Shown here: piece by piece, positions 10,628 to 51,134 of the stretch
How the letters are laid out: each line of letters starts with the position of its first letter
Numbering within the stretch: position 1 is the first letter of the stretch
Assembly: GCA_009839485.1 (NCBI GenBank)
Contig: VXPQ01000032.1
Span: forward strand, 26,982 to 90,981
Reading direction: 5' to 3'
Source of the DNA: Bacteroidetes bacterium SB0662_bin_6
Lineage (GTDB): Bacteria; Bacteroidota; Rhodothermia; Rhodothermales; VXPQ01
Length of the DNA: 64,000 nt
Notes under the pieces: generated by a model
Seen by the model: only the letters and a program-made list of their open reading frames with translations
What the model was told of the DNA's origin: nothing
Databases searched by the model: none
Position numbers and translations under genes: made by a program

Positions 10628-13600
10628 TCAGGAAACCAGCACCCATCCCTCTGCAATTTTTCGCTCCGCAAGTTTGTACTTGAGCGTTTGCGTTTGCCCG
10701 GTAGACGGATTCTGGATGGTCACTTTCTCATTGCGTCCGATTTTATGATCCACTACGACGGTTTCCTTTCGGGCGGTCGGGTCCCGGTCGGCAGATGCTG
10801 TCTGCCCCCCACCCGACTTGACGCCGTAGGTGGGCTCCATGGAATCGTGGCGCGCCCGCGCCCGCTTCGGATCGAGACGGCGACGTGCAGGAGCGGAACG
10901 GGCAGACCGGGCGGATTGCTCAGCGACAAGCGGCCCCGCCTTGAACACGAAAGAAACAACCTCTTCGTTGATCGTCTCCATCATCTCCGCGAAAAGCTTG
11001 AACGCTTCCATCTTGTACTCGACGAGCGGATCCCGCTGTCCGTACGCGCGAAGCCCGATCCCCTCCTTTATTTCATCGAGTTCCCGCAGGTGCCCCATCC
11101 ACTTCTCGTCGATGATATTGAGCATGGCGGTCCGCTCGAGGGTATTGTTGATGATACGCCCTTCCGTACCTACCGCCTCCTCCACCTTCACCACCGCCCG
11201 CAGCAAACGGCGCCCGTCCGTGAAATCCACGAATACGCGGGCCGGGCGGCGCTCTTCATCCTGCTCCATCACCTGTTGCATGCCCTTGTGGAACGGGCGC
11301 GACAAGGCATCCTGTTTGCGCCGGTAAAACGAGATGGCCTCATCGTAGATCAGCTGCCCCACGCCGTCTTCCCCAAGTTGCACGAATCTTTCCCGTTCGA
11401 GCTCGAATTCGAACGCCAGTTTGCGCAGGATTTCCTCATGCAGTTCATCCAGCGTGCCTTCCCCATAGTGCCTTTCCACCACCTTCGAGATGACATCCTG
11501 AAGCATTTCCAGAATCTCCCCGTGAAACCGCTCCCCCTTGAGCGCATGCAGGCGGCGGTCGTAGATCACCTGCCGCTGCGAATTGAGCACATCGTCGTAT
11601 TCGAGCTGGCGCTTGCGAATGGAGAAATTGTTTTGCTCGACTTTCTTTTGCGCCCGGGTGATACTCTTGTTCACCCACGGATGCGTAATGACGGCGCCCT
11701 CTTCCATGTTCAGGCGGTCCATCACCCTGGCAGCGCGATCCGAACCGAACAGGCGCATCAGATCGTCTTCGAGGGATACGTAAAACTGGCTTTCGCCCGG
11801 ATCCCCCTGCCGGCCCGATCGGCCCCGCAATTGCAAGTCGATCCGCCGACTCTCGTGCCGCTCGGTACCGAGAATGGCGAGTCCTCCAGCCTCGAGCACG
11901 CCGGGCCCCAGTTTGATGTCCGTACCGCGTCCGGCCATATTCGTGGCGATCGTCACAGCCCCGCGCTGCCCGGCTTCGGCCACAATATCGGCCTCTGCTT
12001 TCGCCCGGTCGCGGCGCGCATTCAACACATTATGGCCAATGCCCGACCGCTTGAGCATCCGGGACAGGGTTTCCGACACATCCACGGAGGTGGTTCCCAC
12101 CAGGACAGGCCTGCCTGCCTGATTGTACTCGGAAATTTTTTCGATGGCGGCGCGGTACTTCTCACGCTTCGTTCTGAACACCAGATCGTCGAGATCGTCT
12201 CGCGTGATAGGCCGGTTCGTCGGGACGACCACCACATCCATCTCGTAGATTTTCCAGAACTCCTCGGCTTCCGTTTCGGCGGTGCCGGTCATGCCGGAGA
12301 GCTTGTCGTACATCCGGAAATAATTCTGAAGCGTGATGGTGGCGTACGTCTGCGTCGCCGCCTGCACCTGCACCTTTTCCTTGGCTTCGATCGCCTGGTG
12401 CAACCCGTCGGAATACCGCCGACCGGAAAGCACCCGGCCGGTATGTTCGTCCACGATCTGAACCCGTCCTTCCTGTACGATGTATTCCACGTCTTTCTCG
12501 TACAGGGTATAGGCCTTGAGCAACTGCTCGATGGCGTGCAGGCGCTCCGCCCTTTCCGAATACAGCGTGTAGAGCGTGCGTTTCTCCTCCTCCTCTTCCT
12601 TGGCGAGAAGACGCACATCGTTCATGCGTTTGTTTTCCTTCTTCTCCTCATCCAGTGAATCGTCCGCCTCGATGTGCTCCTCTACCTTCCGCCGCCGTTC
12701 CGCGTAGCGGCCTTCTATGGAAGCAATCTTGTCGCCCATGTCCGGGAGCACGAACAGATCGGTATCTTCCCCGGCTGTCCGCGCCGCAAACTCGCGCCCC
12801 TGCTCCGTCATTTCGATAGCATGCTGCTTCTCCTCCAGGGCAAAGAACAACGGCTCATCCACAAGCGGCATATGCTTGGCATTATCCTGCAAGTAGAAGA
12901 ACTCCGTCTTGCGCAGCAACTGCGCCACGCCCGTTTCCTGAAGCAGCTTCTGGAGCTTCTTGTTGCGGGGAAACCCGCGGTTGGCGCGCAGGAGAGCAAG
13001 GCCGGCTTCGTTCTCGATCTCCGAGGCCGTCTTGCGGTCGCCGGCCTCTTCGGCCCGGTCCCGTTCGCGTAACCGCCGCTCCGCTTCGGACGCAAATCCG
13101 GCTACAGCCTTCTGCTGGGCATAGACCAGCTTTTCGATGACGGGCTGCAGCTCCATAAAACGGCTGTCGTTCGCCTGCGGTACGGGACCGGAAATAATGA
13201 GCGGCGTGCGCGCCTCGTCGATCAGCACGGAATCCACCTCGTCCACGATCGCAAAATGGTGGCCGCGCTGCACCAGTTGCTCCTGCTCGGATACAAACGA
13301 ATTATCCCTCAGATAGTCGAAGCCGAACTCGTTGTTCGTGCCGTACGTGATGTCGGCGCGGTATGCCTTGCGGCGGCCTTCCGAGTGCGATTCGTACTTG
13401 TCGATGACATCCACGGTCAGACCGTGAAACTCGAAGACCGGGCCCATCCATTCCGCATCGCGCTGCGCCAGATACGGGTTGACCGTCACCACATGCACGC
13501 CGCGGCCCGCCAGCGCGTTGAGATAGACCGGCAGAACGGCCACGAGCGTTTTCCCCTCGCCCGTTTTCATCTCGGCAATACGCCCCTGGTGCAGCACCAC

Positions 13601-14131
13601 GCCCCCCAGCAACTGGGCGTCGTACGGGACCATATCCCAGGAAATGCGGGTGCCTCCGGCTTCCCATTCCTTGCCTAACAGGCGGCGGCACGTTTCCTTG
13701 ATGACGGCAAACGCTTCCGCAACCATACTGTCGAGCACTTCCTCGACAATCTCCAGCCATTCTTCTTCCAGCCCATCGAGTTCGTCGAAGAGCACCCGAT
13801 GTTCCTGCGGTGAAAGTTCCTCGCTTTCATCGGTCCCGACCCCGTTTCCCGAAAATGCAGGAAGCGTCGTTTCGTCTGCAGCGGATGGATCCTGCTCCGG
13901 CACGGGTACGGCGCCCCCCAGACGGGCGCGCAGCGCTTCCTGGCTTGCTTCGTTGTCTGCTACGGCTTCCCGGATGCGTTGCCGGAAATCGTCCGTTCTG
14001 GCCCGCAGTTTCTCGTCCGAAAGGTCGGACAGATCCTCACAGGCATCGTTGATGCGCTCGACAACCGGCCAGAGCCGCTTCAGCTCCCGTTCGTTCTTGT
14101 CGCCGAACAGCGATTTGAAGAAATCTATCAT
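10628..14131 (-). CDS. secA: Preprotein translocase ATPase SecA (long, 1167 aa form)
   Basis: MKTGEGKTLVA Walker A, DEVDSVLIDEARTPLIISG, TNMAGRGTDIKLG. Confidence 0.97.
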   Translation of the reverse strand: MIDFFKSLFGDKNERELKRLWPVVERINDACEDLSDLSDEKLRARTDDFRQRIREAVADNEASQEALRARLGGAVPVPEQDPSAADETTLPAFSGNGVGTDESEELSPQEHRVLFDELDGLEEEWLEIVEEVLDSMVAEAFAVIKETCRRLLGKEWEAGGTRISWDMVPYDAQLLGGVVLHQGRIAEMKTGEGKTLVAVLPVYLNALAGRGVHVVTVNPYLAQRDAEWMGPVFEFHGLTVDVIDKYESHSEGRRKAYRADITYGTNNEFGFDYLRDNSFVSEQEQLVQRGHHFAIVDEVDSVLIDEARTPLIISGPVPQANDSRFMELQPVIEKLVYAQQKAVAGFASEAERRLRERDRAEEAGDRKTASEIENEAGLALLRANRGFPRNKKLQKLLQETGVAQLLRKTEFFYLQDNAKHMPLVDEPLFFALEEKQHAIEMTEQGREFAARTAGEDTDLFVLPDMGDKIASIEGRYAERRRKVEEHIEADDSLDEEKKENKRMNDVRLLAKEEEEEKRTLYTLYSERAERLHAIEQLLKAYTLYEKDVEYIVQEGRVQIVDEHTGRVLSGRRYSDGLHQAIEAKEKVQVQAATQTYATITLQNYFRMYDKLSGMTGTAETEAEEFWKIYEMDVVVVPTNRPITRDDLDDLVFRTKREKYRAAIEKISEYNQAGRPVLVGTTSVDVSETLSRMLKRSGIGHNVLNARRDRAKAEADIVAEAGQRGAVTIATNMAGRGTDIKLGPGVLEAGGLAILGTERHESRRIDLQLRGRSGRQGDPGESQFYVSLEDDLMRLFGSDRAARVMDRLNMEEGAVITHPWVNKSITRAQKKVEQNNFSIRKRQLEYDDVLNSQRQVIYDRRLHALKGERFHGEILEMLQDVISKVVERHYGEGTLDELHEEILRKLAFEFELERERFVQLGEDGVGQLIYDEAISFYRRKQDALSRPFHKGMQQVMEQDEERRPARVFVDFTDGRRLLRAVVKVEEAVGTEGRIINNTLERTAMLNIIDEKWMGHLRELDEIKEGIGLRAYGQRDPLVEYKMEAFKLFAEMMETINEEVVSFVFKAGPLVAEQSARSARSAPARRRLDPKRARARHDSMEPTYGVKSGGGQTASADRDPTARKETVVVDHKIGRNEKVTIQNPSTGQTQTLKYKLAERKIAEGWVLVS

Positions 14132-14312
14132 GGTGCGCAGGGCGCGGAAATAAAGGGAATAATCGGTTTGCCGGAAGAAATGTCCGACAGACTGGCAGGG
14201 AACAGAATATCACGCCGAACTGCAAAAACCGTTCCTTGCCAAGATGATGACAAAAGCCCCTGCTTTCGTATCTCCAAAGGCAACATCAGACCGCAATCTC
14301 CGTTCATGTAGT

Positions 14313-15299
14313 ATGCGTACTCCTTATGTCCGCCCCTTCCTCCTTGCGGCAATCCTTGTCCTGACCGGGACGGGCGCCCTTCCGGCGGCGGCCCAGTCCG
14401 GATCGGCCACCACCTTCTCATTCCTGCGGCTTGCCCCTTCCGCACGGGCCGCCTCGCTGGCCGGCGCATTCTCCGCCGTATACGATGAAGACGTCAACGC
14501 CCTCTTCTATAACCCGGCCCTGCTCAATCCGGACATGCACCGCACGCTCTCCGTCACCTACCTCAACCATCTGGGGGGTATCCATGCGGGATTCGTATCG
14601 CATGCCCGGCATTGGGAAGGCATCGGCACACTTGGCGCGGGACTGCGCTACGTAACCTGGGGCAACATCGATGGATACGATGCGACCGGCAACGCTACGG
14701 AAAGCTTCGGAGCAAACGACGCGGCGCTCACCGCATCCTGGGCCCGCGCCCACGACGAACGCTTGCGGTACGGCGCAAACCTCCATGCCGCGTTCTCCAG
14801 GATTGAAACAGCCAGCGCCTCGGCCTTCGCCGCAGACGCCGGCGTGCTCTACCATTTCTCCGAACAGCAACTGGCCCTGAGCGCCTCCGTGCATAACATA
14901 GGTATTGTGGTGGATGCGCTCGGCTCGTCCAGGGATACGCTGCCGCTCGATCTGCGCATAGGGGTCTCGAAACGCTTGCGGCATCTGCCGCTACTCATCG
15001 CCTTGTCGGGCTATAACCTGAACCGGATAGGCGAAGAAAGCGAAGGCCGAAACGCGGTGTCGGGCGTGCTCCGGCACGTAGCCCTCGGGTGGGAATTCTT
15101 TTTCAGCGATGCGTTCCGGCTCCGCCTGGGATACAACCACCGGCAGCATCAGGACCTGAAAATGAAAAACAGGCTGGATCTGGCCGGTGTGGGCGTGGGA
15201 TGCGGAATCAGGGTGGCAAGCTTCCGCTTCGACTATGCCTTCAACTCCTGGTCAACTCTCGGAGGCCTGCATCAGATCACCGTACGCACGAGTATCTGA
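14313..15299 (+). CDS. PorV/PorQ-family outer-membrane beta-barrel protein (T9SS-associated family); subfamily uncertain
   Basis: Signal peptide ending in AAAQS. FSFLRLAPSARAASLAGAFSAV...NPALL N-terminal motif and alternating beta-strand pattern. Start moved to the ATG at 14313. Confidence 0.55.
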   Translation: MRTPYVRPFLLAAILVLTGTGALPAAAQSGSATTFSFLRLAPSARAASLAGAFSAVYDEDVNALFYNPALLNPDMHRTLSVTYLNHLGGIHAGFVSHARHWEGIGTLGAGLRYVTWGNIDGYDATGNATESFGANDAALTASWARAHDERLRYGANLHAAFSRIETASASAFAADAGVLYHFSEQQLALSASVHNIGIVVDALGSSRDTLPLDLRIGVSKRLRHLPLLIALSGYNLNRIGEESEGRNAVSGVLRHVALGWEFFFSDAFRLRLGYNHRQHQDLKMKNRLDLAGVGVGCGIRVASFRFDYAFNSWSTLGGLHQITVRTSI

Positions 15300-15319: not shown

Positions 15320-16240
15320 CTATTCAGGATTCTCCTGTAGCAGGCTTTGCTTCCTGGAGTAAATCAGGGTCGTGTCGCGCGTACCGTGCCGCATGCGCTT
15401 CATGACCTCTTCGATACCCATGCCCTTGTTCAGCCAGATGAGAGGCGCCGTGTGCGTGAGGCTGTGCGGACTGACGCCGCTTCGTTTCAGGTTGGCCGCC
15501 GCCAGACACCGGTTGATCCGGCTTCGGACGGAACGCGTATTCAGGCGTTGCCCGTTCGATCGATGGCCGTGTGACACGAATAACGGATGTTCGGGCAGCA
15601 CGGAATCGCGCGCTTCGAGATAGCGCTCTATTTTTTCGATCACCGGAGGATCCAGTGGCGCCTGCCGATCCTTGCCGGCACGCCCCTTGCCCTGCACCCG
15701 CAGGAAGGTTCCGTCCAACATGCGGTCGATGTCCCGTACATCGGCCCGTACGACCTCGATCTCGCTGAGCCCTGCGTACAGCATCAGGTACACCATGGCC
15801 TGATCCCGTTTCCCAAGCAGGGTCGTATCGTCGAGCACACGCAATAACTGCCGGATGTCCGCTTCCGTAAGCACCGCGCGGGAGTGCGACAACGGACGGC
15901 GGTTCCCCTTGACTGCCAGAGCCGGGTTCTTGTCCATCAGCCCGATGACGACAAGATATTGACAGAACTGCCGGAAAGCGGTGAGATAGGTGGATACGGA
16001 CGCTTCGCTCAGCGAGCGCGTCTCCATCAGATAGGTTTTATACGCCCGGACCCCGTCCTCCGAGAAACGAAATGTGTCCGCCTGTTCGGCAAACCACCGT
16101 TCGAATTCGCGGAGCGCCCTGCTATAGGTCCCCACCGTATCGGCGCTCTTTTCCCTGAGGTACTCCCGCTGAAAATCCTGCAACCGCTTTGCAAGCTCAC
16201 CGGTTGTCAGTTTGAGGGGTTCGATGTGTGACAAAGCCAT
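15320..16240 (-). CDS. Tyrosine-recombinase (XerC/D-like) homologue with both catalytic Arg positions substituted
   Basis: SAM-like N-terminal domain plus catalytic-domain landmarks GKGRAGKDR, SPHSLTHT, MRHGTRDTTLIYSR. The expected GLR..E reads GLSEIE and the expected HxLRH reads HSLTH. Confidence 0.8.
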   Translation of the reverse strand: MALSHIEPLKLTTGELAKRLQDFQREYLREKSADTVGTYSRALREFERWFAEQADTFRFSEDGVRAYKTYLMETRSLSEASVSTYLTAFRQFCQYLVVIGLMDKNPALAVKGNRRPLSHSRAVLTEADIRQLLRVLDDTTLLGKRDQAMVYLMLYAGLSEIEVVRADVRDIDRMLDGTFLRVQGKGRAGKDRQAPLDPPVIEKIERYLEARDSVLPEHPLFVSHGHRSNGQRLNTRSVRSRINRCLAAANLKRSGVSPHSLTHTAPLIWLNKGMGIEEVMKRMRHGTRDTTLIYSRKQSLLQENPE

Positions 16241-22059: not shown

Positions 22060-22130
22060 TTGCCCGGGGAGGACTCGAACCTCCACATACGGCTCCAAAG
22101 GCCGCTGTCCTGCCATTAGACGACCGGGCA
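22060..22130 (-). tRNA. tRNA-Gln (anticodon UUG)
   Basis: Manual cloverleaf. Acceptor UGCCCGG/CCGGGCA with the U1-A72 pair. D-stem GUCU/GGAC. Anticodon stem GCGGC/GCCGU with loop CUUUGGA. T-arm GGAGG-UUCGAGU-CCUCC. No encoded CCA. Confidence 0.9.
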
Positions 22131-22965: not shown

Positions 22966-23952
22966 TCATCCCGTCGCGTCTGCAAGCGCCTCCAGCACCA
23001 CATCGTGCAAAAGCCCGTTCGTGGCCACAATACCCATGTTCCGCTCGAGTTGTGCACCGCACCGGAAATCAAGCGGGCGGCCTGCCATGTCCGTAACCAT
23101 GCCGCCTGCCTCCTCCACAATGAGCGCGCCCGCAGCATGATCCCATATATTCTCGATATATCCCGAACGGGCAGTCAGACGGAGGTAAATATCCGCGTCC
23201 CCGCGGGCCAGTACGCCATATTTCGCCTGACTGTCTATACGGAGCGAGGCGGCTTCTACGCCCAAATGCGTCGCCACGGCAGCCACATCCCGGCGGGAGC
23301 CGTGATTTGATTCGAAAGGCTCGCAAAGCCGGGCTTGCGCGCCGGTGGCTACGGTACGCACCCGGATGGACTGCCAGACCGTATCCCCGGTGTCGTGAAG
23401 GGGAGCCTGAAACGCCCCTTCCCCCCGGTGCGCCGCAAACACGGCCCCCTTCTCATTACCCCCTTGCGCATCGCAGGGTAAATCGGGACAAGCCATGGCC
23501 GCCACGGTGATCCGCCCATCCATGATCAACGCCAGGGCCACAACATACTGATCGCACCGCAGAAATCCCTTCGTACCATCGATCGGATCCAGGGTCCAGA
23601 AACGTTCGGTGTATCCGGTCGCAGTGCCCCTGTCGATCCAGGCGCATACCGACTCGTGTGTTGCGCCGGGAAGCACCTGCGCCACCTCGGTGGTCACCTT
23701 GTCAAGCACGCTCTTGTTTTCCGGCAGGCGCAAGACAGCCGAATCCTCCTCGCCAATTACAGGGTCATGCGGAAACGCTTCCTGCAGCGCATGGCATACG
23801 ACCGCCTGACTTCCAAAATCCGCAACCGTAACCGGAGAACGATCTTCTTTCCTGAGCGCGGATTGTCCCAGCGTTTTCTGAACGGACATGCAGACACGCG
23901 CCGCCCTGCGCACCGCATGGACGGCGACATCGAACTCTGCCTGGTATTTCAT
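22966..23952 (-). CDS. 3'(2'),5'-bisphosphate nucleotidase (HAL2/CysQ, inositol monophosphatase superfamily)
   Basis: SPVTVADF, WTLDPIDGTKGF and IWDHAAG motifs. Start at 23952 (MKYQAEFDVAV). ATGA overlap with the upstream gene. Confidence 0.8.
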   Translation of the reverse strand: MKYQAEFDVAVHAVRRAARVCMSVQKTLGQSALRKEDRSPVTVADFGSQAVVCHALQEAFPHDPVIGEEDSAVLRLPENKSVLDKVTTEVAQVLPGATHESVCAWIDRGTATGYTERFWTLDPIDGTKGFLRCDQYVVALALIMDGRITVAAMACPDLPCDAQGGNEKGAVFAAHRGEGAFQAPLHDTGDTVWQSIRVRTVATGAQARLCEPFESNHGSRRDVAAVATHLGVEAASLRIDSQAKYGVLARGDADIYLRLTARSGYIENIWDHAAGALIVEEAGGMVTDMAGRPLDFRCGAQLERNMGIVATNGLLHDVVLEALADATG

Positions 23953-24452
23953 AGGGTTGGCTGGGTATCGCTTGCAGGATCCCCTGCAGAAACTGCTTCG
24001 AAAGGCGGAATGCAATCCATAAAATCGTCCGGGCGATCAGACGGCCAGCAGTAATGGCGCAATCCGTTGGTTACGGCAAGATAACGCGCCCCGACGACTC
24101 TGTTATATTTCGCGATCTGCTCAAACGCCGCGGATCCTATGCGAACCTCCGGCGCCTTGCATTCCACCATCAGGGACGGGATGCCCTGCCGATCATGCGC
24201 GACAATGTCGGCGCGACGGGACATGCCCTGGTATTCGAAGTGCATCTCAACGGCAATAAGAGCCGGCGGATAGCCGCAATCCCGGATGAGAAAATGCAAA
24301 AAATGCACGCGCACCCATTCCTCAGGAACAAGGCGCACATACTTTTGGCGTACGGGATCGAATACGTATCGGGAATCTTTTTCCGCCCCCGATCGGATGC
24401 GAAGAGGGCAGGCCGGCAGATTCAGCCGCGGAAAGCCATCTGCTCCGGTCAA
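23949..24452 (-). CDS. HsdR N-terminal-domain (HSDR_N_2, PD-(D/E)xK fold) protein
   Basis: PEEWVRVHFLHFLI...RADIVAHD...SLMVECKAP...YLAVTNG matches the conserved core of the small standalone HsdR_N_2 family. The D...ECK nuclease-like motif is present. Confidence 0.8.
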   Translation of the reverse strand: MTGADGFPRLNLPACPLRIRSGAEKDSRYVFDPVRQKYVRLVPEEWVRVHFLHFLIRDCGYPPALIAVEMHFEYQGMSRRADIVAHDRQGIPSLMVECKAPEVRIGSAAFEQIAKYNRVVGARYLAVTNGLRHYCWPSDRPDDFMDCIPPFEAVSAGDPASDTQPTL

Positions 24453-24670
24453 TCTTTCTGAATAACCGTTATGTCCGGCATGGTCTTGGGCCGGCGATAG
24501 AGCGACCCCTTCGAACCGTTGATGGAAACGTTTTGCTGAACCATATCCCAGTTTTTCTCAATCTCGGCTTCGTCCCCGTTGAACGGGGCCGAGCCGGTTC
24601 CGGACCGGCCAAAATCGAAAACGTAGAGGTTATTGGGAATTCCCAGAAGGACTTGTGTCGGCATCTGCAT
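24449..24670 (-). CDS. Small hypothetical protein (73 aa) translationally coupled to the HsdR_N gene
   Basis: ORF MQMPTQVLLGIPNNLYVFDFGRSG...ITVIQKD. Its stop overlaps the next start (ATGA). I chose the start at 24670 because the longer version (24745) would run through a strong hairpin. No recognisable family. Confidence 0.35.
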   Translation of the reverse strand: MQMPTQVLLGIPNNLYVFDFGRSGTGSAPFNGDEAEIEKNWDMVQQNVSINGSKGSLYRRPKTMPDITVIQKD

Positions 24671-24700
24671 AACGCAACAGGAAAAACTTGTTGAGGCAAA

Positions 24701-24740
24701 ACCGGAAAATGCACGGGGTGGACATAACACATTTTCCGGT
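24701..24740 (-). terminator. Perfect 11 bp-stem hairpin followed by a T-run on the minus strand (terminator or attenuator-like)
   Basis: ACCGGAAAATG (24701-11) pairs with CATTTTCCGGT (24730-40) across an 18 nt loop. On the minus strand the stem is followed by TTTGCC. Confidence 0.35.
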
Positions 24741-25088
24741 AACAAACTAATGGTAGACCGCCTTTCCTGTAAAGTTTCCTTGAAGATGCGTTTTTTCGGA
24801 GATTATGTACGTACGGGGGCTATATCCGCCCAGGCCATTCATGTCGTCTCGCGCTCCACCCCCCTTATACCTGGTCGTGTTAGGGCCTGTTAGCACTATA
24901 CAGCGATGCTCTGTTCCGTCAGGCACGGGGTCAATCAAGGCGTGAGGAGTGAAGTTTGGTGGTTCCAAATGAGCGACGAGCAACGAAGAGTGACCCCGTG
25001 ACCGGCGGAACCCGAAGGGCGGGGCCTATTTTCCCGCCATGCGGCGTTGCCGCTCGCTTATGTGGCTGGCCACACTGCGCTTGCGCGC
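24741..25088 (-). other. About 350 nt non-coding, strongly self-complementary region downstream of the P450 gene (candidate 3'UTR or ncRNA)
   Basis: No credible ORF. Perfect inverted repeats: CACGGGGTCA 24924-33 / TGACCCCGTG 24991-25000; GGCGGG 25018-23 / CCCGCC 25033-38; GCGGC 25041-45 / GCCGC 25049-53. Contains a copy of the intergenic motif at 24880-99. Confidence 0.25.
24880..24899 (+). repeat. Intergenic motif copy b (TTAGGGCCTGTTAGCACTAT)
   Basis: Lies inside the 24741-25088 non-coding region. Similarity to the reconstructed copy d extends about 15 nt further (CACTATaCAGCGatGCT). Confidence 0.6.
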
Positions 25089-27131
25089 TCAGATCGGGTT
25101 CCTGATTTGAGCAACCCGGAATTTCAACTTTTTGTTGGGGGCAGATGTCGGAAACGGATTGATTCCGAGCTTGTAGTCTGCGGGCGCCACTTCCAGTTTC
25201 AGGTGGTACGCGATGAGCAGGACATTGACCGCCATCTGAAGTTCCACCCAGCGGCTTCCAAGACACATGTGCGTGCCGAGGCCATAGGGAGCGTAGGCGC
25301 CCGGCGTCGTATGCTCGGATCGCTCCGGCAGATAACGGTCTATGTCGAATTCCAGGGGGTCCTTGAACAATTCTTCGGAGTAGTGCGGCGCCGTCTGGCA
25401 AATCAATAACACCGTCTTGGCCGGTATCTGGTAGCCGTTCACGATGCACTCGTTCATAACCATTCTCAACTGCCAGGGAATCACCGGATGCACACGCAAG
25501 GACTCCATGTAGAGGCGGGCCGTGGCGTCGATGGCGTCGTGAGTGAAATCCTCCGGACCCGGCTCGCGCCCGTTCCCGAAAAGCGCCTCGGCTTCTTTAC
25601 GGATCTTCTCGTGCAAATCCGGGTCGCGAATCATGGAGTAAACCGTAAAAGCAAGCCCGCTTCCGAGATATATACTGGCGACCATCGACGCAACGAACGG
25701 AAAAGTGAGGTCCGTTTCCGGCAGGAACTGCGGATCGCTCTTGTGCAGTCCGAGGATTGCATCCGCAAGATCCGGTGGCTTGCCCTTCCTCTGTCCCGGC
25801 GTGTGCGATGTGGTGATCGATTCCTGGAACTCCCGGACGCGCTTGCTGTACCGTTTCATTTTCGGTGTCCGCAACATGAATTTCGGCAAGGCGCCCTGCA
25901 CCTGCGTCACCAGCGCCCGATGTTCATATTCAAGCAATTCGTCGACGTAATGGCTGCAATCCACCCCCATCGTGAGGTGCGAGATTTGACTGCTGATGTG
26001 ATTCTGGAACTCCTTGGTGGCGCGGAGCACGTCGCCTTCGCTCCACCGACTCAGCGATTGCCGGCAGCGGTGGACCAACTCAGGTAACCGTCGTGCAAGC
26101 GCGGAACGGGAATAGGCGCTCTTCAACTCCTTACGCATCCTGTAGTGTTCAGCCCCATCCATCCCCGGCAGCGTTCGGGATGCGCCGAACGCGCTCTCCA
26201 GATCCTTGATGTAATCCTTCGAGCGAAGATAGAACCGCCCGTGTTTGTTCACCCACTGATTGGTATCCGGGCCCATCAGGGCGATTATGCGTGACTTACG
26301 CATCTTGAAGGGCAATTCGAGGACCGGCCCGTGGTTCCGGAAAATGCCGTACATCGCCTTGGGAATATTGCCCGAGCGAAAGTCACGCTGCCGCAGGATA
26401 TCAATGTACCGGAGCTTCGGGATGGGTTTGGCCTGAATAACGCGGCGGGTCCTCGGTGTGGCGGTGCTGTCTCTCACCGCAGTCGCAACCGTCCGCCCTA
26501 TCAGATCCAGCTTGGCGACAAGCTCGATGCGCTCGAGCCTGTCCTCGTAGTCTTCCGGCTCGAGCAACAGCTTGAAACCGTCGCACGTATGCATCAAGGC
26601 TATAAGAATGGCATCGCGCGGATCCGGAATGCTGTCGTCGTTCAGGATGACGCTCAAAATTCTCGCTTTGGCCTCCTGGCGAACCTTCAGATCCGAAGCA
26701 GGATAGGTGCCCGACCGGGAAACGGAGCGCGAAAGCCCCCAGAATCCCCCGCTCTCGTAGTCGAGAATTTTCCTCTCCACCAGACGATCGAGCGTGGCCG
26801 TAACGATTTCGTCGGAACGACCCGTGTTTCGCTCGATCCAGTACTGCGTGTCCTGGGTCTCCCCGGATTCGGCGATTTCCTTGAGCGTCGGGTCGAGCAG
26901 GTTGTCTCCCGTGGGGTGGGAATCAACCAGATACAGCGCCTTCAGGTCGGTGTCGATCCGATCCTCCAGTGCAAGATCGGCAAGTACGGCTCCCGCCATA
27001 ACACAGGAGAAGTTCCAGCCTGGAACCATTTCCAGATACCCGCTCTGTTCGTCGAGCATCAGAAGAATCAGTTCTTCCGCAAGACGTATCGGAAACTGTA
27101 CCGACGTACTCTCCATGCCAAACCTTGTCAA
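25089..27131 (-). CDS. Fusion protein: N-terminal GOLPH3/GPP34-like domain plus C-terminal cytochrome P450
   Basis: aa ~14-220 (IRLAEELILLMLDEQSGYL...AGAVLADLALEDRI...LDRLVERKIL...DPRDAILIALMHTCDG) fits the GPP34 family pattern. The C-terminal part has ExxR (ESLR), a PERF-like DRYLPER, and the Cys-heme loop YGLGTHMCLG. Confidence 0.85.
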   Translation of the reverse strand: MTRFGMESTSVQFPIRLAEELILLMLDEQSGYLEMVPGWNFSCVMAGAVLADLALEDRIDTDLKALYLVDSHPTGDNLLDPTLKEIAESGETQDTQYWIERNTGRSDEIVTATLDRLVERKILDYESGGFWGLSRSVSRSGTYPASDLKVRQEAKARILSVILNDDSIPDPRDAILIALMHTCDGFKLLLEPEDYEDRLERIELVAKLDLIGRTVATAVRDSTATPRTRRVIQAKPIPKLRYIDILRQRDFRSGNIPKAMYGIFRNHGPVLELPFKMRKSRIIALMGPDTNQWVNKHGRFYLRSKDYIKDLESAFGASRTLPGMDGAEHYRMRKELKSAYSRSALARRLPELVHRCRQSLSRWSEGDVLRATKEFQNHISSQISHLTMGVDCSHYVDELLEYEHRALVTQVQGALPKFMLRTPKMKRYSKRVREFQESITTSHTPGQRKGKPPDLADAILGLHKSDPQFLPETDLTFPFVASMVASIYLGSGLAFTVYSMIRDPDLHEKIRKEAEALFGNGREPGPEDFTHDAIDATARLYMESLRVHPVIPWQLRMVMNECIVNGYQIPAKTVLLICQTAPHYSEELFKDPLEFDIDRYLPERSEHTTPGAYAPYGLGTHMCLGSRWVELQMAVNVLLIAYHLKLEVAPADYKLGINPFPTSAPNKKLKFRVAQIRNPI

Positions 27132-27254
27132 ATGCCGGGTCGATAGGGACAGGACCAGAACTGCACAACGACCTGATGTCGCATCCGGAATGTAACCTAT
27201 CGGTCATCGCATCGGTTTCAGCCTCCGTCTCATCACACCGGGAAACAGCCGCAT

Positions 27255-28664
27255 TTACGCCTTCCTGAGACGCCAACCGTACATCAGGCGCCCGTAAAAA
27301 TTGAACCACTTCCTCGCTTCCGCATCCTGAAACGGGTAATCCGCCCCGATCTGTCTCGCCGTAACCAGGCCGGACACGAAACAGGTCTCCTGACTGTTGA
27401 TCAGCGTGTGCGCGCCGCAGTGCCACGTTCGCCTCCTGCCCTGAACATGGCGAAACAAATGGACCAGAAAGGCCACATGGCGCACATCGTGTACTATGTG
27501 CTGAAACCACCACTTCCTGATGATCTTGCCTTCGTCGATGCGGCTGATCGGATTGTAGGTCACCAGGCACGGCTTATCCGAGCGGCCCACCCAGGGCTGC
27601 TGATTGTGCATGATGTAGGTGATTTCGTAGTTGTCGGGTCGTACGCCGTACTGCGCGATGTGATTGCTCCGGGTGGAAAGTGCCCTGACGTCGTTGTCCG
27701 GTAGAATCGAGGCGTCCGAATGGACGACCGTATGGTTGTGCAGTTCGCTTTCGTAACGTATCGAAGACAGCAGGTAGCTCTCAAGAAACGTCGGTTCATC
27801 CAGCATCATCAGCGTTTGATTCGCATTGCACGCGAACACCACGTCATCGAACGTTTCCCGCTTACCGTCCCGGTCCTCTACGACGACCTCGGATTGGCGA
27901 CGGTACACCTTCCGCACCGGCCGGTTAAGGTATATCTTGTCCTGAAAGGCGGCCGCCATCTTCTCATAGATGCGCCGCGTGCCCTGATCCCATGTTTGCA
28001 TCGGCGTCGCGGTTTCGATATCGAAGAATTCCAGATACCGGCAAAACAGCGATGCAGGCATATCGAACACGTTCGTGGCCATCAGGAAGTTGACGAACAT
28101 GGGCTTCAGGATCTTGTACCTGAAATCTCCGGAAAACCTGCCCAGGTTGAGCACCGCACCCATACTGACGTAATTGAGCGGGTTAAGCGCATTGAGTAAT
28201 CTGGACCTGGTACGGTTCAGCCGCCCAAACCACTGTGCACGTCTCAGAAGCTTCTGGAATTTCTTGATCTCCGGTTGCAACTGCTTCCTGATATCGGAAT
28301 CAAAATCGTGCGCATAGATGCCGCCGCGATACTTCACGCTGTAGCTGAATCGGGTATCGATCAACTCGATGCCGTGTTGCTGCATGAAGAGAAGGATATG
28401 ATGGTATACCGAGGGAATGCACGCGGTGACGGAAATGTCGAATGGAATCGACGTGCCATCGTCCTGCGGCATATCGGCCGTAATGGCGTTGCCTCCGACC
28501 TGAGCCTGCGCTTCGAACACGCGGAAATCGAATCGATCGGGCTGCTTGTGCAATGCCCAGGCCGTCCCCAATCCCGACACGCCTGCGCCGATAATAGCAA
28601 CCCTTCTGGGCGACGCGCCTCGCTCCGCTGACCGATCCTCTTCGGGTGGTCCGGATATGTTCAT
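27255..28664 (-). CDS. FAD-dependent oxidoreductase, COG2907-like (amine-oxidase/desaturase fold)
   Basis: Rossmann motif VAIIGAGVSGLGTAWAL...FEAQAQVGGN. C-terminal QGRRRTWHCGAH...SGL resembles the COG2907 family C-terminus. Confidence 0.8.
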   Translation of the reverse strand: MNISGPPEEDRSAERGASPRRVAIIGAGVSGLGTAWALHKQPDRFDFRVFEAQAQVGGNAITADMPQDDGTSIPFDISVTACIPSVYHHILLFMQQHGIELIDTRFSYSVKYRGGIYAHDFDSDIRKQLQPEIKKFQKLLRRAQWFGRLNRTRSRLLNALNPLNYVSMGAVLNLGRFSGDFRYKILKPMFVNFLMATNVFDMPASLFCRYLEFFDIETATPMQTWDQGTRRIYEKMAAAFQDKIYLNRPVRKVYRRQSEVVVEDRDGKRETFDDVVFACNANQTLMMLDEPTFLESYLLSSIRYESELHNHTVVHSDASILPDNDVRALSTRSNHIAQYGVRPDNYEITYIMHNQQPWVGRSDKPCLVTYNPISRIDEGKIIRKWWFQHIVHDVRHVAFLVHLFRHVQGRRRTWHCGAHTLINSQETCFVSGLVTARQIGADYPFQDAEARKWFNFYGRLMYGWRLRKA

Positions 28665-28689
28665 GTGATACCGTCCCGAAAGTTGTTAC

Positions 28690-29793
28690 TCATGAGGATG
28701 TCCGCGCCTCATTTTGCTCCGCGCGCTCAGCGCTACGATCGGGTTGCCCGTCTTTACCGGAAGCCCGAGAATCCGGATAGAACTGTTTGCAATAGCGCCG
28801 ATACCTGCCGATATCGCCGTCAGCCCGACACAGTCTGGGATAGGGTACGTACCGTTTTCGCCCCCAGATAATCACATCCTGCAACACATCGTGCTTTTGA
28901 TAAGACAGAATGATGCTGTTCATTACCCTGGTGCGAAGACCCGGTGGAAGAAATCCCAGACCGACGATCGGACGTTTCGGTTTACGGATCTCGCGTATCT
29001 GACTGGCCAGGACCAGTTCGATATGCTTGCCGTCGACAGGAGTTGCGAGCACCCACAAACGCCCATGCATTTCAATGGATCGCTCGTGAATTTCCACGTA
29101 CGAATATCCCAATCCGAAGATGCGCGCGACAGCGGAGACATCCAGAACGATATCCCTTATCCCCATAACATTCTGGGTGCGTCTGAATTCAAACTTGCTC
29201 GTCAGACAAGCGCCGTCGATGCTTACCGGTTCAACCATGCGCGTATTGCCATAACCATGCACGTACTGCAGATGCAGGAAGTCCACAGAGTTCTCGGTGG
29301 TTTCCTGGGGGTGTCCCGGAAATCGAAGGGTCCGAAACCCCACTTCGCCCCAGTCTGCCCCGGCCACAGGCTCCTCGGGAAGGCTCCATTGCGGCGGCCG
29401 GCCGTCTATTCCCCACCACCCGAATACCATGCCGAGGATTTCCCGCGTTTCGAATACCTTCAGCCGCGCGGCCCTGGGCGGCGGGGCAAAAGGAGTGGCG
29501 ACACACTGGCCGCTTACATCGAACTCGAAGCCGTGAAACGGACAAACGAGACAACCGTCCCGTACCCGGCCACCGGCTTCGGGTCCCAGGTCGGACCCGA
29601 GGTGCGGACACACCGCCAGAGCCACGCAGATGCGGCCTGCGTCGTCGCACCACGCGACAATCTGTTCACCCAACCAGGTTTTTTCAATCAGTTTCGCTTT
29701 CAGTACGGATTGCCGGCTGGCAACGAAGTACCAACCCTCCGGAAACGGGGGAGGCGACGGGAGATTTTCTAACTCGACGCGTCTTGCTGGCAT
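28690..29793 (-). CDS. Rieske [2Fe-2S] non-heme-iron oxygenase, KshA/Neverland-like (alpha subunit only)
   Basis: Rieske motif CPHLGSDL...(x17)...CPFHGFEF. Mononuclear iron motif ENSVDFLHLQYVH (ExxxDxxHxxxxH). Start moved to 29793 (MPARRVELENL). Confidence 0.85.
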   Translation of the reverse strand: MPARRVELENLPSPPPFPEGWYFVASRQSVLKAKLIEKTWLGEQIVAWCDDAGRICVALAVCPHLGSDLGPEAGGRVRDGCLVCPFHGFEFDVSGQCVATPFAPPPRAARLKVFETREILGMVFGWWGIDGRPPQWSLPEEPVAGADWGEVGFRTLRFPGHPQETTENSVDFLHLQYVHGYGNTRMVEPVSIDGACLTSKFEFRRTQNVMGIRDIVLDVSAVARIFGLGYSYVEIHERSIEMHGRLWVLATPVDGKHIELVLASQIREIRKPKRPIVGLGFLPPGLRTRVMNSIILSYQKHDVLQDVIIWGRKRYVPYPRLCRADGDIGRYRRYCKQFYPDSRASGKDGQPDRSAERAEQNEARTSS

Positions 29794-29865
29794 CTTAACG
29801 GTGATATTGCGAATTGGCGCGCAGATAGATGTCCATAATAGTCCGGATTTGCGCAAAAGGGAGGC

Positions 29866-30840
29866 TCAGGACGCGGGCTCCGCCCCCCGGCCGGCCAGGA
29901 GATACAACACGGCCATACGTACGGCAACGCCGTTGGTCACCTGATCCAGAATGACGGCCCGTTCGTGATCCACCACATCGCCCGCCAACTCCACACCCCG
30001 GTTCACAGGCCCCGGGTGCATGATGCGAAGATCGGGATGACGTTCCATATGTTCGAGGGTGATGCCGAACCGCTCATGGTATTCCCGCACCCCGGGGAAA
30101 AGCATCGCTCCCTGTCGTTCAAGTTGTACGCGCAGCGCCATCGCCACGTCGCAACCCTCCAGCGCTTCGTCCAGACGGTCCGTCACCCGCACACCCATTT
30201 CCTCGACACCCACCGGAGTCATCGTGGCGGGTGCGCACAGCGTTACGTGGGCGCCCAGCGCCCGCAATCCGTATATATTGGAACGGGCCACGCGGCTGTG
30301 CGCAATATCCCCGATAATAGAAACGTTTCGTCCTTCAAGAGACGGGTGGATATCCGTCAGCGTAAGCAGATCCAGCAAAGCCTGGGTAGGATGTTCATGG
30401 GCGCCGTCTCCGGCATTGATTACCACGGCGTCCACGCAGCGCGTCAGAAAAACAGGCGCGCCCGGCGACCGGTGCCGAATCACGACCATGTCCACCTTCA
30501 TCGCCTCGATATTGCGGGCAGTGTCCTTGAGGGTTTCTCCCTTGGAGACCGACGAGCCGGAAACAGAGAAGTTGACCGTCTCCGCCGACAACCGTTTTTC
30601 GGCCAGTTCGAAGGAAATGCGCGTTCGCGTGGAAGGCTCGAAAAAAAGATTCACGACAGCCACGTCGCGCAATGTAGGGACGCGCCGAATAGGCCGATCC
30701 AGCACCGAGCGAAACTCCCGCGCCGTACGAAGAATAAGTTGTATTTCGTCTGCGTCGTACGTCGAAAGGCCAAGCAGATGCCGGTGTCTCAACGACTCCG
30801 GGGCAGACCGATCCTCCCGTGCTTCTTCGCGTGCGTGCAT
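29866..30840 (-). CDS. pyrB: Aspartate carbamoyltransferase catalytic subunit
   Basis: [21 protein letters not shown] and HPGPVNRG motifs. Confidence 0.95.
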
Positions 30841-31409
30841 CAGTTATTCAAGGTTTCCACCAGCCATACTCCTTCCCGGTCGTCTATCTCGTTCAACCGT
30901 ACACGTACCTCTTCCCCGGGTAAAGTGGGCACCTGCCGGCCCACAATGTCCGCGCATACGGGAAGCTCCCGAAGACCGCGGTCAACGATCACAAGAAACT
31001 GTACGGTGGCCGGACGCCCGATATCCATAAGCGCATCAAACGCCGCCCGGGCCGTTCGCCCGGTATACAATACATCATCCACCAGTACGATGCGGCGCTC
31101 CGTGATGTCGAACGGAATGTCCGTGGCGCGCACCACGGGCTGCTTGAGACGAAGTCGGAAATCGTCCCGATACATGGTGGCGTCGAGTACGCCGATCGGG
31201 ACGGTCAGGGATTCGAAGTCCAAAATCTTGTCGCGGAGCCGCCGGGCCAGATACACACCGCGCGTCTGCATGCCTATCAAGCCGAAATGGCGGGAGGCGT
31301 CCTCCTCAGGATGCATCATCTCCACAATCTGGCGCGCCATCCGGTTCAGTGTCCGGTCCAGATCGTGTGCATCCATCAATTGTGCCTTGATGCGATCTCT
31401 TACCCCCAT
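30840..31409 (-). CDS. pyrR: Bifunctional pyrimidine regulatory protein/uracil phosphoribosyltransferase PyrR
   Basis: PRTase motif [12 protein letters not shown]. Typical PyrR N-terminus after moving the start to 31409. 1-nt stop/start overlap with pyrB. Confidence 0.9.
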
Positions 31410-31499
31410 ACCATATAAATTACGAGAAACGACACCTGTTTCCAATCCGTCTGACGTACCTTCGGTATAACGGCTGGTAAACCCACCCACTCATTCCAT

Positions 31500-32447
31500 T
31501 TGTTTCCCACGATGCCCACCGTACAGGATACTACCCTGAAATACCTCGATCCGGTAGTCGTATCCCGCCTGAAGAACATGGAGCTCCGGGCGCGAATGAT
31601 CGTCGAAGGATTTATTACGGGCATGCACAAGAGCCCGTATCATGGGTTCTCTGTAGAGTTCGCCGAACACCGGCCCTACATCGCCGGCGACGAGCCGCGA
31701 TACGTGGACTGGAAGGTCTATGGGAAGACGGACCGGCACTACGTCAAACGGTTCGAAGAGGAAACCAACCTGCGGCACTATGTGGCGCTCGATACCTCCG
31801 CATCGATGCGCTACCGGGCGCAGGCGCCTCTTTCCAAAATGGAATACGGCGCATACCTCGCGGCCGCACTGCACTATATCATGGTCAAGCAGCGCGATGC
31901 CACCGGACTGATTACGTTTGACGAGGAGATCCGCACCATCATGTCCCCGAGAAGCACAACATCCTGGCTGCGACGACTCCTTGTCAGACTGCAACATACC
32001 GTGGACAATCCGGCGCCGGAAAAGCGCACAGGCGCCGCCGATGCACTCAGCAAGATCGCCGAACGCATCGCGCGGCGTTCCCTCGTCGTGGTCATCACCG
32101 ATCTCTTCGAAAACATCGGGCGCCACGAAGACCTGCTCAAAGCGTTGCGTCACCTGCGTTACCGCGGACACGAAGCGCTCGTTTTTCATGTGCTCGAATC
32201 CGCTACCGAGCGCACGTTCGACTTTCCCGACGTGCCCATGATCTTTCGCGATATGGAAACCGGGGAGGAAATCTCCCTGCAACCGGCGCACATCCGCGAA
32301 AACTATCGGGAGGCTGCACAGTTCTTCGGAGACCGGTTTCGACGCCAGTGCCTCGAATACGACATCGATTTCGTGGAACTGAATACGGAACAATCGTACG
32401 ATACAGCTCTGCTGGCCTATCTGAACAAGCGAAAGAAGCTCGTCTGA
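31500..32447 (+). CDS. DUF58 (vWA-like, MoxR-associated family) protein
   Basis: GMHKSPYHGFSVEFAEHRPYIAGDEPRYVDWKVYGKTDR is the DUF58 hallmark region. Confidence 0.8.
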   Translation: MFPTMPTVQDTTLKYLDPVVVSRLKNMELRARMIVEGFITGMHKSPYHGFSVEFAEHRPYIAGDEPRYVDWKVYGKTDRHYVKRFEEETNLRHYVALDTSASMRYRAQAPLSKMEYGAYLAAALHYIMVKQRDATGLITFDEEIRTIMSPRSTTSWLRRLLVRLQHTVDNPAPEKRTGAADALSKIAERIARRSLVVVITDLFENIGRHEDLLKALRHLRYRGHEALVFHVLESATERTFDFPDVPMIFRDMETGEEISLQPAHIRENYREAAQFFGDRFRRQCLEYDIDFVELNTEQSYDTALLAYLNKRKKLV

Positions 32448-42104: not shown

Positions 42105-42178
42105 GGGTCCTTAGCTCAGTTGGTTAGAGCGCTACGTTGACATCGTAGAGGTCGATGGTTCGAATCCGTCAGGACCCA
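42105..42178 (+). tRNA. tRNA-Val (anticodon GAC)
   Basis: Manual cloverleaf. GGGUCCU acceptor, GCUC/GAGC D-stem, CUACG-UUGACAU-CGUAG anticodon arm, GAUGG-UUCGAAU-CCGUC T-arm, discriminator A. Confidence 0.95.
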
Positions 42179-51029: not shown

Positions 51030-51134
51030 AACGCAATGAAATATCCGTCATTCGCCCGCAACATACGCACGACCCGATGTATGGGGTCCACCCTGGTCGG
51101 AAACCCCGCGGATGCCAAAACCCGTCCCCCTGCC

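Follow-up and report, generated by a model that had tools for sequence, protein, structure and literature searches.

Introduction

Parts of what may be a single metabolic system of sponge symbionts have been noticed separately, namely a sponge-only cluster of KshA-like proteins that may be the Rieske family treated here (2018), scattered bacterial sterol methyltransferases (SMTs; 2022, 2023) and a gene in which a GPP34 domain is fused to a cytochrome P450 (2025). The KshA cluster was found by Holert et al. (2018) only in sponge metagenome-assembled genomes (MAGs), which were assigned to Bacteroidetes or Actinobacteria. De novo sterol clusters are common in sponge symbionts, including Rhodothermia, have spread horizontally and are under purifying selection; they comprise a cyclase, CYP51, a C-14 reductase, an SMT and SdmAB, and "scattered" SMT genes have been described besides (Kelly 2022, Brown 2023). 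The fusion, published as GPP34_L (Ferreira et al. 2025, Microbiome, PMC11706023), is reported to be exclusive to sponge symbionts, monophyletic and expressed in situ, and to be carried by 96% of sponge-associated Rhodothermia and known from 16 or more phyla. Here we analyse a 64,000-nucleotide (nt) stretch of DNA from Bacteroidetes bacterium SB0662_bin_6 (contig VXPQ01000032.1, positions 26,982 to 90,981 of the forward strand; the whole stretch is called the window below), in which three consecutive minus-strand genes encode a Rieske oxygenase, a flavoprotein and a GPP34::P450 fusion of this published type. Bins named like SB0662_bin_6 are listed as symbionts of Ircinia ramosa (Ferreira et al., PMC11706023), and the genomes closest to the window are Rhodothermales MAGs.

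Comparison of the locus with other genomes indicates that the trio is a reduced form of a larger, horizontally transferred cassette found specifically in symbionts of sponges (and corals). In its full form this cassette encodes an outer-membrane channel, a periplasmic adaptor, the Rieske protein, in some cases the flavoprotein, the GPP34::P450 fusion, a resistance-nodulation-division (RND) pump and an SMT homologue. The cassette, its reduced form in the window, the loss of the phosphatidylinositol 4-phosphate (PI4P) pocket of the GPP34 domain and the atypical I-helix of the P450 (all below) appear to be undescribed, and the component families are all of known kinds. A first-pass annotation of the window, made from its letters, had called the trio a candidate undescribed oxidative tailoring system; the fusion gene itself is already known, and we found no paper that describes its gene neighbourhood or that joins fusion, Rieske, SMT and exporter genes, nor any characterised pathway that uses the Rieske-flavoprotein-fusion set.

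Results

Recurrent neighbours of the fusion gene

Searching 185,579 species, each represented by one genome, gave 106 stretches, and 79 loci anchored on the fusion gene were kept. All open reading frames (ORFs) in these loci were clustered, and partner families were counted in the 54 loci that have full flanks of 8 kb on either side of the fusion gene; these come from Rhodothermales, Acidobacteriota and Gammaproteobacteria. Within that distance an HlyD-type RND adaptor gene is present at 48 of the 54 loci, an AcrB-family RND pump gene at 45, the Rieske gene at 38, a NodT-type outer-membrane channel gene at 36, a gene for a methyltransferase with a Sterol_MT_C domain at 28, the flavoprotein gene at 16 (30%) and a gamma-glutamyltranspeptidase gene at 10, while a single locus has none of the partner families. 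A full version is present at locus L019, which reads channel, adaptor, Rieske, flavoprotein (on the opposite strand), fusion, pump and methyltransferase.

The pump, methyltransferase, adaptor and channel proteins are 51–65% identical between Acidobacteriota, Rhodothermales and Gammaproteobacteria, and the cassette components overall are 50–90% identical across phyla. Unrelated RND systems are expected to be much less similar than 51–65%, and since these four proteins are that similar between phyla, the cassette moves as a unit. Its composition is also seen in sponge metagenome contigs obtained independently. The arrangement in the window, with Rieske, flavoprotein and fusion genes in that order and all in one direction, was found in seven Rhodothermales-type loci (L001–L004, L015, L036 and L037) and in one Petrosia metagenome contig (L087). 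The first-pass annotation had treated the trio as a unit and had proposed a synteny check; with that check now run, the genes are seen to be syntenic well beyond close relatives. The trio, however, is a reduced variant of a larger cassette, in which an RND efflux system and an SMT homologue are the most constant partners, and the earlier remark that a transporter is missing applies to this window only.

In the closest relatives of the window that have an RND pump gene (L002, L004 and L080), this gene occupies the interval from pyrB to the Rieske gene and ends 1 nt before the Rieske start. These pump genes (L002 2090–5278, L004 1872–5060 and L080 4084–7263) have no adaptor or channel gene within 8 kb, and their products would have to borrow partners encoded elsewhere, or are remnants. 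Two arrangements seen elsewhere are recorded here as such. In an Acidobacteria MAG (L022 7989–13633) two copies of the fusion gene flank an oppositely oriented flavoprotein gene and are followed by pump and methyltransferase genes, and the gamma-glutamyltranspeptidase gene (824–2533 in L019) lies directly upstream of the channel gene, the inspected cases of this being Acidobacteria MAGs.

Distribution of the three proteins

Each of the three window proteins has at least 120 homologue clusters, at identities of 70–92% for the fusion, 82–100% for the flavoprotein and 62–91% for the Rieske protein, and the 120 listed fusion homologues all share the GPP34 plus P450 architecture. The few named clusters come from MAGs of Acidobacteriota, Gamma- and Alphaproteobacteria, Gemmatimonadota and Bacteroidota. 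All 79 kept loci are from MAGs, and wherever the name reveals a source it is a sponge or coral. Among 241 million metagenome records there are 13 close relatives of the fusion, in the series LXNJ, LXNI, JGIcombinedJ30088, Ga0209021 and MKWU; the first four are metagenomes of Petrosia, Sarcotragus and Aplysina according to Brown et al., and MKWU is not so listed. As far as these sources can be told, the fusion is restricted to sponge and coral symbiont sequence, in agreement with its published exclusivity to sponge symbionts. The Aplysina contig Ga0209021_1000146, which carries a propylating SMT, was absent from the fusion matches in this metagenome scan.

The Rieske oxygenase

The Rieske protein matches the Pfam families Rieske (1e-14) and KshA_C (5e-24; 85.9 bits against a cut-off of 23.3), and its best solved relatives are KshA proteins (PDB 4qdc), with an E-value of 6e-23 over residues 7–343. 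Its [2Fe-2S] ligand motif and its mononuclear-iron motif, the latter read as intact in the first-pass annotation, were located by motif search, and the cluster ligands, the two-His motif and the Asp of the LQDV sequence all align with their counterparts in KshA (Table 1). The KshA_C domain and the full-length KshA match also bear out the earlier placement of this protein in the KshA branch, and "cluster IV" of Holert et al. (2018), a set of KshA homologues seen only in sponges, may be the same family. None of the curated NCBIfam models comes near its cut-off for this protein; an identity as SdmA was considered and rejected, since model NF052579 gave 24.2 bits against a cut-off of 600 and matched the Rieske domain only.

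The flavoprotein

The flavoprotein belongs to Pfam family Amino_oxidase (7e-16) and has the motifs GAGVSG (residues 26–31) and HCGAH (415–419), found by motif search. It is 100% identical to an NCBI protein of Bacteroidetes bacterium SB0662_bin_6. In the PDB it matches LkcE, the lankacidin amine oxidase, over its whole length (4e-22) and also the fatty-acid isomerase of P. acnes (2b9w, 8e-9). A tblastn search of annotated plasmids and chromids gave 109 full-length homologues that are 27–30% identical over about 92% of the length (E-values down to 5e-37), and these are its nearest annotated relatives outside sponges. In the two records whose gene order was inspected, the homologue gene lies beside rpoE-chrR and directly upstream of a DUF1365 gene, which in the Pseudoalteromonas record is followed by a gene of the cyclopropane fatty acid (CFA) synthase family. 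This is the layout of the ufaD-ufaO operon type of Lemke (2020), in which an FAD oxidoreductase gene precedes DUF1365 near rpoE-chrR. The earlier likening of the flavoprotein to COG2907 and UfaD thus holds at the superfamily level through the operon position of its homologues, and it is on this position that the UfaD link rests. Genes for DUF1365 (UfaO) and for a CFA-synthase-type methylase are absent from the window and from the recurrent neighbours of the fusion loci.

A carotenoid enzyme was also considered for this gene and rejected, as CrtI and HpnE models match the N-terminal FAD motif only, at about 21–23 bits against cut-offs of 238–283. An AlphaFold model built from 51 near-identical homologues was too poor for a comparison of pockets (predicted local distance difference test score, pLDDT, of 51). 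On two complete MAG chromosomes there is a lone flavoprotein gene (L081 10001–11359 and L082 10001–11383) whose product is 84–85% identical to that of the window; one of these chromosomes is the Pseudomonadales genome that also carries fusion locus L051.

The GPP34 domain of the fusion

The fusion matches GPP34 (1e-33) and p450 (2e-31) in one polypeptide, over residues 17–220 and 253–660, respectively, of the 680-amino acid (aa) ORF in the numbering from its TTG start. The GPP34 fold is further supported by a phmmer match to PDB 3kn1 (2e-6) and by an hhalign probability of 96% against GOLPH3. The PI4P pocket of GOLPH3 is formed by W81, R90, R171 and R174 and was tested with the double mutants W81A/R90A and R171A/R174A (Wood et al. 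2009). In both the sequence and the profile alignments, W81 is kept in the fusion as W34, whereas R90, R171 and R174 are replaced by A41, D102 and V105, respectively, and the 10 residues that precede the pocket helix in GOLPH3 are deleted. The pocket Trp is invariant among 72 homologues, and A41 and V105 each recur in at least 90% of them. By these alignments the fusion has lost three of the four residues of the GOLPH3-type PI4P pocket. Near the old pocket site lie Arg111, which is invariant, and R115, and these two could form an anion pocket of a different shape. The domain begins at about residue 8 of the fusion, which leaves no space for an N-terminal signal peptide. Of the first-pass annotation of this protein, the two fused domains are thus confirmed by Pfam, but its hint of phosphoinositide binding is not borne out by the pocket residues.

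The P450 domain of the fusion

The best sequence matches of the P450 domain in the PDB are the M. capsulatus CYP51 (3e-20), CYP170A1 and CYP46A1 (cholesterol 24-hydroxylase), and a Foldseek search with the AlphaFold model of the fusion (pLDDT 81) gave CYP184A1, P450DA, CYP51, BM3 and CYP46A1. The Cys of the haem-thiolate loop (C618) and the Glu and Arg of the EXXR motif (E538 and R541) are invariant in the 72 homologues. The I-helix is atypical: its motif ASIYLGSG aligns with AGHHTSSG of CYP51, which places Y483-L484 at the position of the usual acid-alcohol (D/E-T) pair, and all of the 72 homologues have Y483 and at least 90% have L484.

The methyltransferase and the exporter in other genomes

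The cassette methyltransferase matches Methyltransf_11 and Sterol_MT_C, the latter at 47.3 bits in L019 and 56.7 bits in L066 against a cut-off of 21.7. For the L019 representative, matches to CFA synthases reach about 1e-13. No sterol methyltransferase structure is present in the PDB, where the best matches are MitM and other generic methyltransferases. In L066 the SMT homologue gene lies beside pump, adaptor, channel, fusion and Rieske genes. Brown et al. tested an SMT, "Theonella Chromatiales 2 of 2", that is encoded on a 117,771-bp scaffold of a Theonella symbiont and has an ERG6 match of 4e-67, and it is very probable that the L066 cassette SMT is this tested enzyme.

The cassette pump is of the AcrB family and falls below the cut-off of every curated subfamily (388 bits against 1250). 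Among host-associated bacteria, RND pumps are known to transport steroids and bile salts out of the cell, and BstA and HpnN are known as bacterial sterol and hopanoid transporters.

Layout of the locus and other features of the window

The ORF list gives three consecutive co-directional minus-strand ORFs at 25089–27131, 27255–28664 and 28690–29856. Gene calls made independently on a public contig that carries an identical flavoprotein gene agree with this layout downstream of pyrB, as first annotated, and give proteins of 367 (Rieske), 469 (flavoprotein) and 675 aa (fusion). The called starts are an ATG at 29793 for the Rieske gene, 28664 for the flavoprotein gene and an ATG at 27116 for the fusion gene, whose longest ORF starts from a TTG at 27131. 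The spacers are accordingly 72 nt between pyrB and the Rieske gene, 25 nt between the Rieske and flavoprotein genes and 138 nt between the flavoprotein and fusion genes; of the two gaps first reported, the one of 25 nt stands, and the one of 123 nt applies only if the TTG start is used. The proposed profile search was also run, and Pfam confirms every domain that had been named, with pyrB upstream included. The features are collected in Table 1.

Table 1. Features of the Rieske-flavoprotein-fusion locus, in window coordinates.
Feature	Position	Strand	Evidence
pyrB, upstream housekeeping flank of the insertion	29866..30840	-	NCBIfam aspartate carbamoyltransferase, 2.8e-115
KshA-type Rieske non-haem-iron oxygenase, alpha subunit only, 367 aa	28690..29793	-	Pfam, PDB relative, gene call
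Rieske [2Fe-2S] ligand motif CPH...CPFH, aa 62-87	29533..29610	-	Motif search; aligns with KshA cluster motif
Mononuclear-iron motif NSVDFLHLQYVH, aa 168-179	29257..29292	-	Motif search; aligns with KshA NVVDMAHFFYIH
Candidate carboxylate in LQDV, aa 304-307	28873-28884	-	Aligns with EQDVEIW of KshA
FAD-dependent amine-oxidase-fold flavoprotein, UfaD/LkcE/PAI-like, 469 aa	27255..28664	-	Pfam, PDB relatives
GPP34::cytochrome P450 fusion (published as GPP34_L), 675 aa	25089..27116	-	Pfam, homologues, gene call
GPP34 (GOLPH3-like) domain, aa 12-215	26472..27083	-	Pfam 1e-33; hhalign 96% against GOLPH3
Cytochrome P450 domain, aa 248-655	25152..26375	-	Pfam 2e-31
P450 I-helix, aa 471-496, motif A-S-I-Y-L-G-S-G	25629..25706	-	Alignment; model predicts helix 471-496
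EXXR motif ESLR (538-541)	25494-25505	-	Motif search
Haem-thiolate loop YGLGTHMCLG (Cys618)	25257..25286	-	Motif search
Variable spacer, downstream edge of the insertion	24671..25088	-	Fold z-score, Rfam, comparison with L003

The block is flanked on one side by pyrR and pyrB, the pyrB flank being present also in the relatives L001–L004, and on the other by genes for a small HSDR_N_2 protein, an inositol monophosphatase, a DtxR-type repressor, prs, L25 and pth. The same flanks enclose the extra RND pump gene in L002, L004 and L080, and on this comparison the three-gene block is best read as an insertion between pyrB and the inositol-phosphatase gene whose content varies among close relatives. 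GC content and GC content at third codon positions of the three genes resemble those of their neighbours and give no compositional sign of recent transfer. About 265 nt directly below the fusion stop (roughly 24810–25076) cannot be aligned to L003, a 98%-identical relative that has about 92 nt (10060–10152) in their place; conservation resumes leftwards from about 24810, and the stretch that does not align has the appearance of a variable margin of the insertion. This is the region that had been taken for a long structured non-coding region ending in a terminator-like hairpin. Neither part of that description is borne out: the 418-nt spacer below the fusion gene has a fold z-score of −1.0 (17 of 100 shuffles fold equally well) and no Rfam match, and the 8 terminator-like sites in the region compare with 7.8 expected by chance. 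Promoter- and terminator-like sites across 23900–31600 are likewise at or below chance. The annotated stretch around the locus contains no regulator, transporter, ferredoxin or reductase gene, in accord with what had first been read from the sequence (independent calls and tblastn).

Several other features of the window were recorded in passing. Between the cassette and the inositol-phosphatase gene lie a gene for the HSDR_N_2 (type I restriction R-subunit N-terminal) protein (23949–24314, minus strand), with no restriction system around it, and a 73-aa ORF without a family match (24449–24670, minus strand). The sole Rfam matches in the whole window are tRNA genes at 22060–22130 (minus strand) and 42105–42178 (plus strand). 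A SecA homologue (10628–14131, minus strand) is unusually long at 1167 aa, and the 290-position SecA_DEAD profile spans its residues 6–626, which implies a large insertion in its predicted motor domain. A 351-aa ORF without a Pfam match (14244–15299, plus strand) adjoins a tyrosine recombinase of the phage-integrase family (15320–16240, minus strand), and in L080 the same block of housekeeping genes is likewise followed by a similar integrase. At 50286–52112 (minus strand) a UbiE/COQ5-type methyltransferase gene lies beside one for an NAD-dependent epimerase with a further match to the 3-beta-hydroxysteroid dehydrogenase family (8e-26); the pair is probably generic, although the epimerase is of the enzyme class of SdmB, the sterol C-4 demethylase partner.

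Discussion

The above comparisons show intact catalytic motifs conserved between phyla in a recurrent neighbourhood, but what would these proteins act upon? Sterol is the leading candidate because the Rieske protein is of the KshA branch, the methyltransferase has a Sterol_MT_C domain, CYP51 and CYP46A1 are among the best P450 sequence matches and the niche is rich in sterols and sterol genes. We regard it as about evenly balanced whether this is a lipid tailoring cassette with sterol as its most likely substrate, and consider sterol specifically a plausible substrate whose chances fall somewhat below even. The desaturation and oxygenation of a membrane-resident hydrophobic substrate that had first been suggested fits such lipid tailoring, but a carotenoid substrate is unsupported.

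We infer the substrate class, the reaction order, the role of the GPP34 domain and the direction and purpose of export as follows. The enzymes would work on a hydrophobic lipid that has an olefin, most probably a sterol, either within the cytoplasm or on the inner side of the inner membrane. The KshA-type Rieske enzyme would hydroxylate or desaturate this substrate, the UfaD-like flavoprotein would introduce a double bond next to a (methyl-branched) olefin, as UfaD does, and the P450 would add a further oxidation, with the GPP34 domain serving as a lipid or membrane docking module and not as a PI4P reader. Electrons would come from a generic cellular ferredoxin and its reductase. In most genomes the methyltransferase would also alkylate the substrate, and the tripartite RND pump would export substrate or product across the envelope. 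A more specific version, in which a sterol tailoring-and-export module shared by at least five phyla acts on host or self-made sterols and its products are pumped to the host, is in our view rather unlikely; in that version the side chain or nucleus would be methylated, desaturated and oxygenated, and the GPP34 domain would be a sterol or lipid hand-off module for the atypical P450.

A number of observations weigh against a sterol tailoring cassette. Homologues of the pump, adaptor, channel and methyltransferase are absent from the whole window in tblastn searches with the cassette proteins, and because of this the export and methylation link for the window rests on other genomes. Genes for an oxidosqualene cyclase, CYP51 and a C-14 reductase were found neither among the recurrent neighbours nor in the annotated stretch or the scanned window ORFs of at least about 250 aa outside it, and these parts of the window gave no other sterol gene. 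Of the cassette members the flavoprotein is the one most often missing (it is at 16 of the 54 full-flank loci, above), its gene is often on the opposite strand, and in other symbiont genomes it also stands solitary among toxin-antitoxin, transposase and restriction genes; the substrates of its characterised relatives, moreover, are fatty acyl chains or polyketides. The methyltransferase has a match to the CMAS family as well (3e-17), and the fold search leaves sterol P450s and fatty-acid P450s (CYP184A1, BM3) equally near. With the Thr/acid pair of the I-helix missing from its aligned position, it is uncertain that the P450 activates O2 by the ordinary route. Finally, no ferredoxin or reductase gene is present at the window locus, and no conserved small Cys-rich ORF or reductase gene was found in the 79 loci.

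The most constant partner of the fusion is a multidrug-type (AcrB-like) tripartite pump with a NodT-type channel, the Rieske and P450 enzymes are classic xenobiotic oxygenases, and the flavoprotein occurs solitary in mobile, variable regions, all of which would also suit a resistance island, in which the oxygenases modify and the pump expels toxic hydrophobic compounds of sponge tissue, produced by the host or by nearby microbes, such as terpenoids, steroidal saponins or halogenated aromatics; such an island would serve detoxification and not the synthesis of a product. A sterol-type C-methyltransferase (at 28 of the 54 loci) has no obvious role in detoxification, the window keeps the oxygenases without a pump at the locus, and identities of up to 85–90% between phyla, across chemically diverse sponge genera, argue for one universal substrate; we therefore think a resistance island unlikely. 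Tailoring of fatty acyl groups, analogous to the furan-fatty-acid pathway of UfaM, UfaD and UfaO and turning phospholipid chains into methyl-branched, conjugated or oxygenated fatty acids, would account for the flavoprotein relatives in the UfaD position and for the fatty-acid isomerase among its solved relatives, for the P450 fold matches to BM3 and CYP184A1 (the latter with bound oleic acid) and for the CMAS match of the methyltransferase. It fits less well with the KshA C-terminal domain of a Rieske protein in the KshA branch, with a Sterol_MT_C match above threshold and the ERG6 match of the SMT on the L066 contig (very probably the cassette gene), or with the lack of DUF1365/UfaO among the recurrent neighbours. 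Nor do tripartite RND exporters usually carry phospholipid acyl chains, and such a pathway seems decidedly unlikely.

Ferreira et al. (2025, PMC11706023) interpret the GPP34 proteins as secreted effectors that bind host PI4P and block phagosome maturation, in which case the neighbouring genes would be irrelevant. The GPP34 fold is certainly real in the fusion and its pocket Trp is invariant, and exclusivity to sponge symbionts and expression in situ agree with an effector; but the three pocket Arg residues are Ala, Asp and Val, a 10-residue segment is deleted, there is no N-terminal signal peptide, and the paper leaves a haem enzyme of 430 aa without a role. Metabolic enzymes and a small-molecule efflux pump are, in addition, what is conserved around the fusion, and GPP34 is in rare cases also fused to Rieske and to ABC-ATPase domains (PMC11706023), so that we consider an effector function improbable for this protein. 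Steroid catabolism, with the Rieske protein a true KshA of the 9,10-seco pathway, a role that Holert et al. (2018) proposed for sponge-specific KshA clusters, and the P450 a side-chain hydroxylase, would make sense of KshA as best solved relative and of the sponge-only KshA cluster in that study. It is very improbable, given that KstD, KshB, Hsa and beta-oxidation genes are not among the scanned window ORFs or the recurrent neighbours, that the Rieske protein is far below all curated NCBIfam cut-offs and that methyltransferase and exporter partners fit modification, not mineralisation. Nor do we give much credence to the absence of any functional link, with separately mobile sponge-niche genes gathering at shared insertion hot spots: composition and orientation do vary between loci, the flavoprotein is solitary in places and the promoter and terminator pattern is not above chance, but 53 of the 54 full-flank loci carry at least one of six partner families, the fusion has the same partners in three phyla and in unrelated genomic contexts, pump and Rieske genes are 1 nt apart in some genomes and the rare GPP34::Rieske fusion exists, and this possibility too lies at the far end of the range.

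A lipid tailoring cassette, with sterol as the leading candidate substrate, offers a concrete and testable alternative to the PI4P-effector hypothesis for a widespread marker of sponge symbiosis. It would be a case in which at least five phyla share an entire metabolic module by exchange inside a single host niche, with proteins 50–90% identical, and its P450 is chemically odd, being without the oxygen-activating Thr/acid pair and fused to a domain of a lipid-binding type. The cassette also supplies candidate enzymes for unusual sponge sterols, which bears on the reliability of 24-isopropylcholestane and related steranes as animal biomarkers. If sterol tailoring and export were correct, bacteria would have a direct part in making the unconventional sterols found in sponges, and so in the disputed sponge sterane biomarkers, the published role of GPP34_L in evasion of phagocytosis would be wrong, and the interpretation of a widespread symbiosis marker would be affected.

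Comparison with known systems

The window fusion is a member of GPP34_L, with the same two-domain architecture in the same niche. The main text of the GPP34_L paper is silent on efflux, sterol, methyltransferase and amine-oxidase neighbours, and flanks were analysed there only for the short GPP34 form in Actinobacteriota (PMC11706023). With GOLPH3 and Vps74 the fusion has the GPP34 fold in common, and of the four residues of the GOLPH3 PI4P pocket it keeps W81 only.

The Rieske protein resembles KshA (PDB 4qdc, 2zyl) in having a Rieske plus a KshA C-terminal domain, in being alpha-only and in conserving both iron motifs; it differs in being only distantly related (E 6e-23) and in having neither the KshB reductase nor catabolic neighbours. 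The de novo sterol clusters share with the cassette the niche, the horizontal spread and the presence of an SMT homologue, a P450 and a Rieske oxygenase. The cassette P450, however, matches CYP51 only distantly (3e-20 over part of the domain, and about 20% identity in the fold alignments), its Rieske protein scores 24 bits against the SdmA cut-off of 600, and an RND pump takes the place of cyclase and reductase.

The AcrB-family pump, HlyD-type adaptor and NodT-type channel of the cassette are like an AcrAB-TolC-type RND system, from which the cassette differs by the genetic coupling of its pump to oxygenases, and the window by having no pump. The flavoprotein, lastly, is like UfaD (RSP1091) in its full-length homology to FAD oxidoreductases in the UfaD position, in its amine-oxidase fold and in the link of that fold to long hydrophobic chains. 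The window flavoprotein is without a DUF1365 partner or ChrR/sigma-E control, and the cassette methyltransferase is of the sterol type; nonetheless, like the UfaM/UfaD/UfaO set, the cassette joins a methylase, a desaturase-like flavoprotein and oxygenases.

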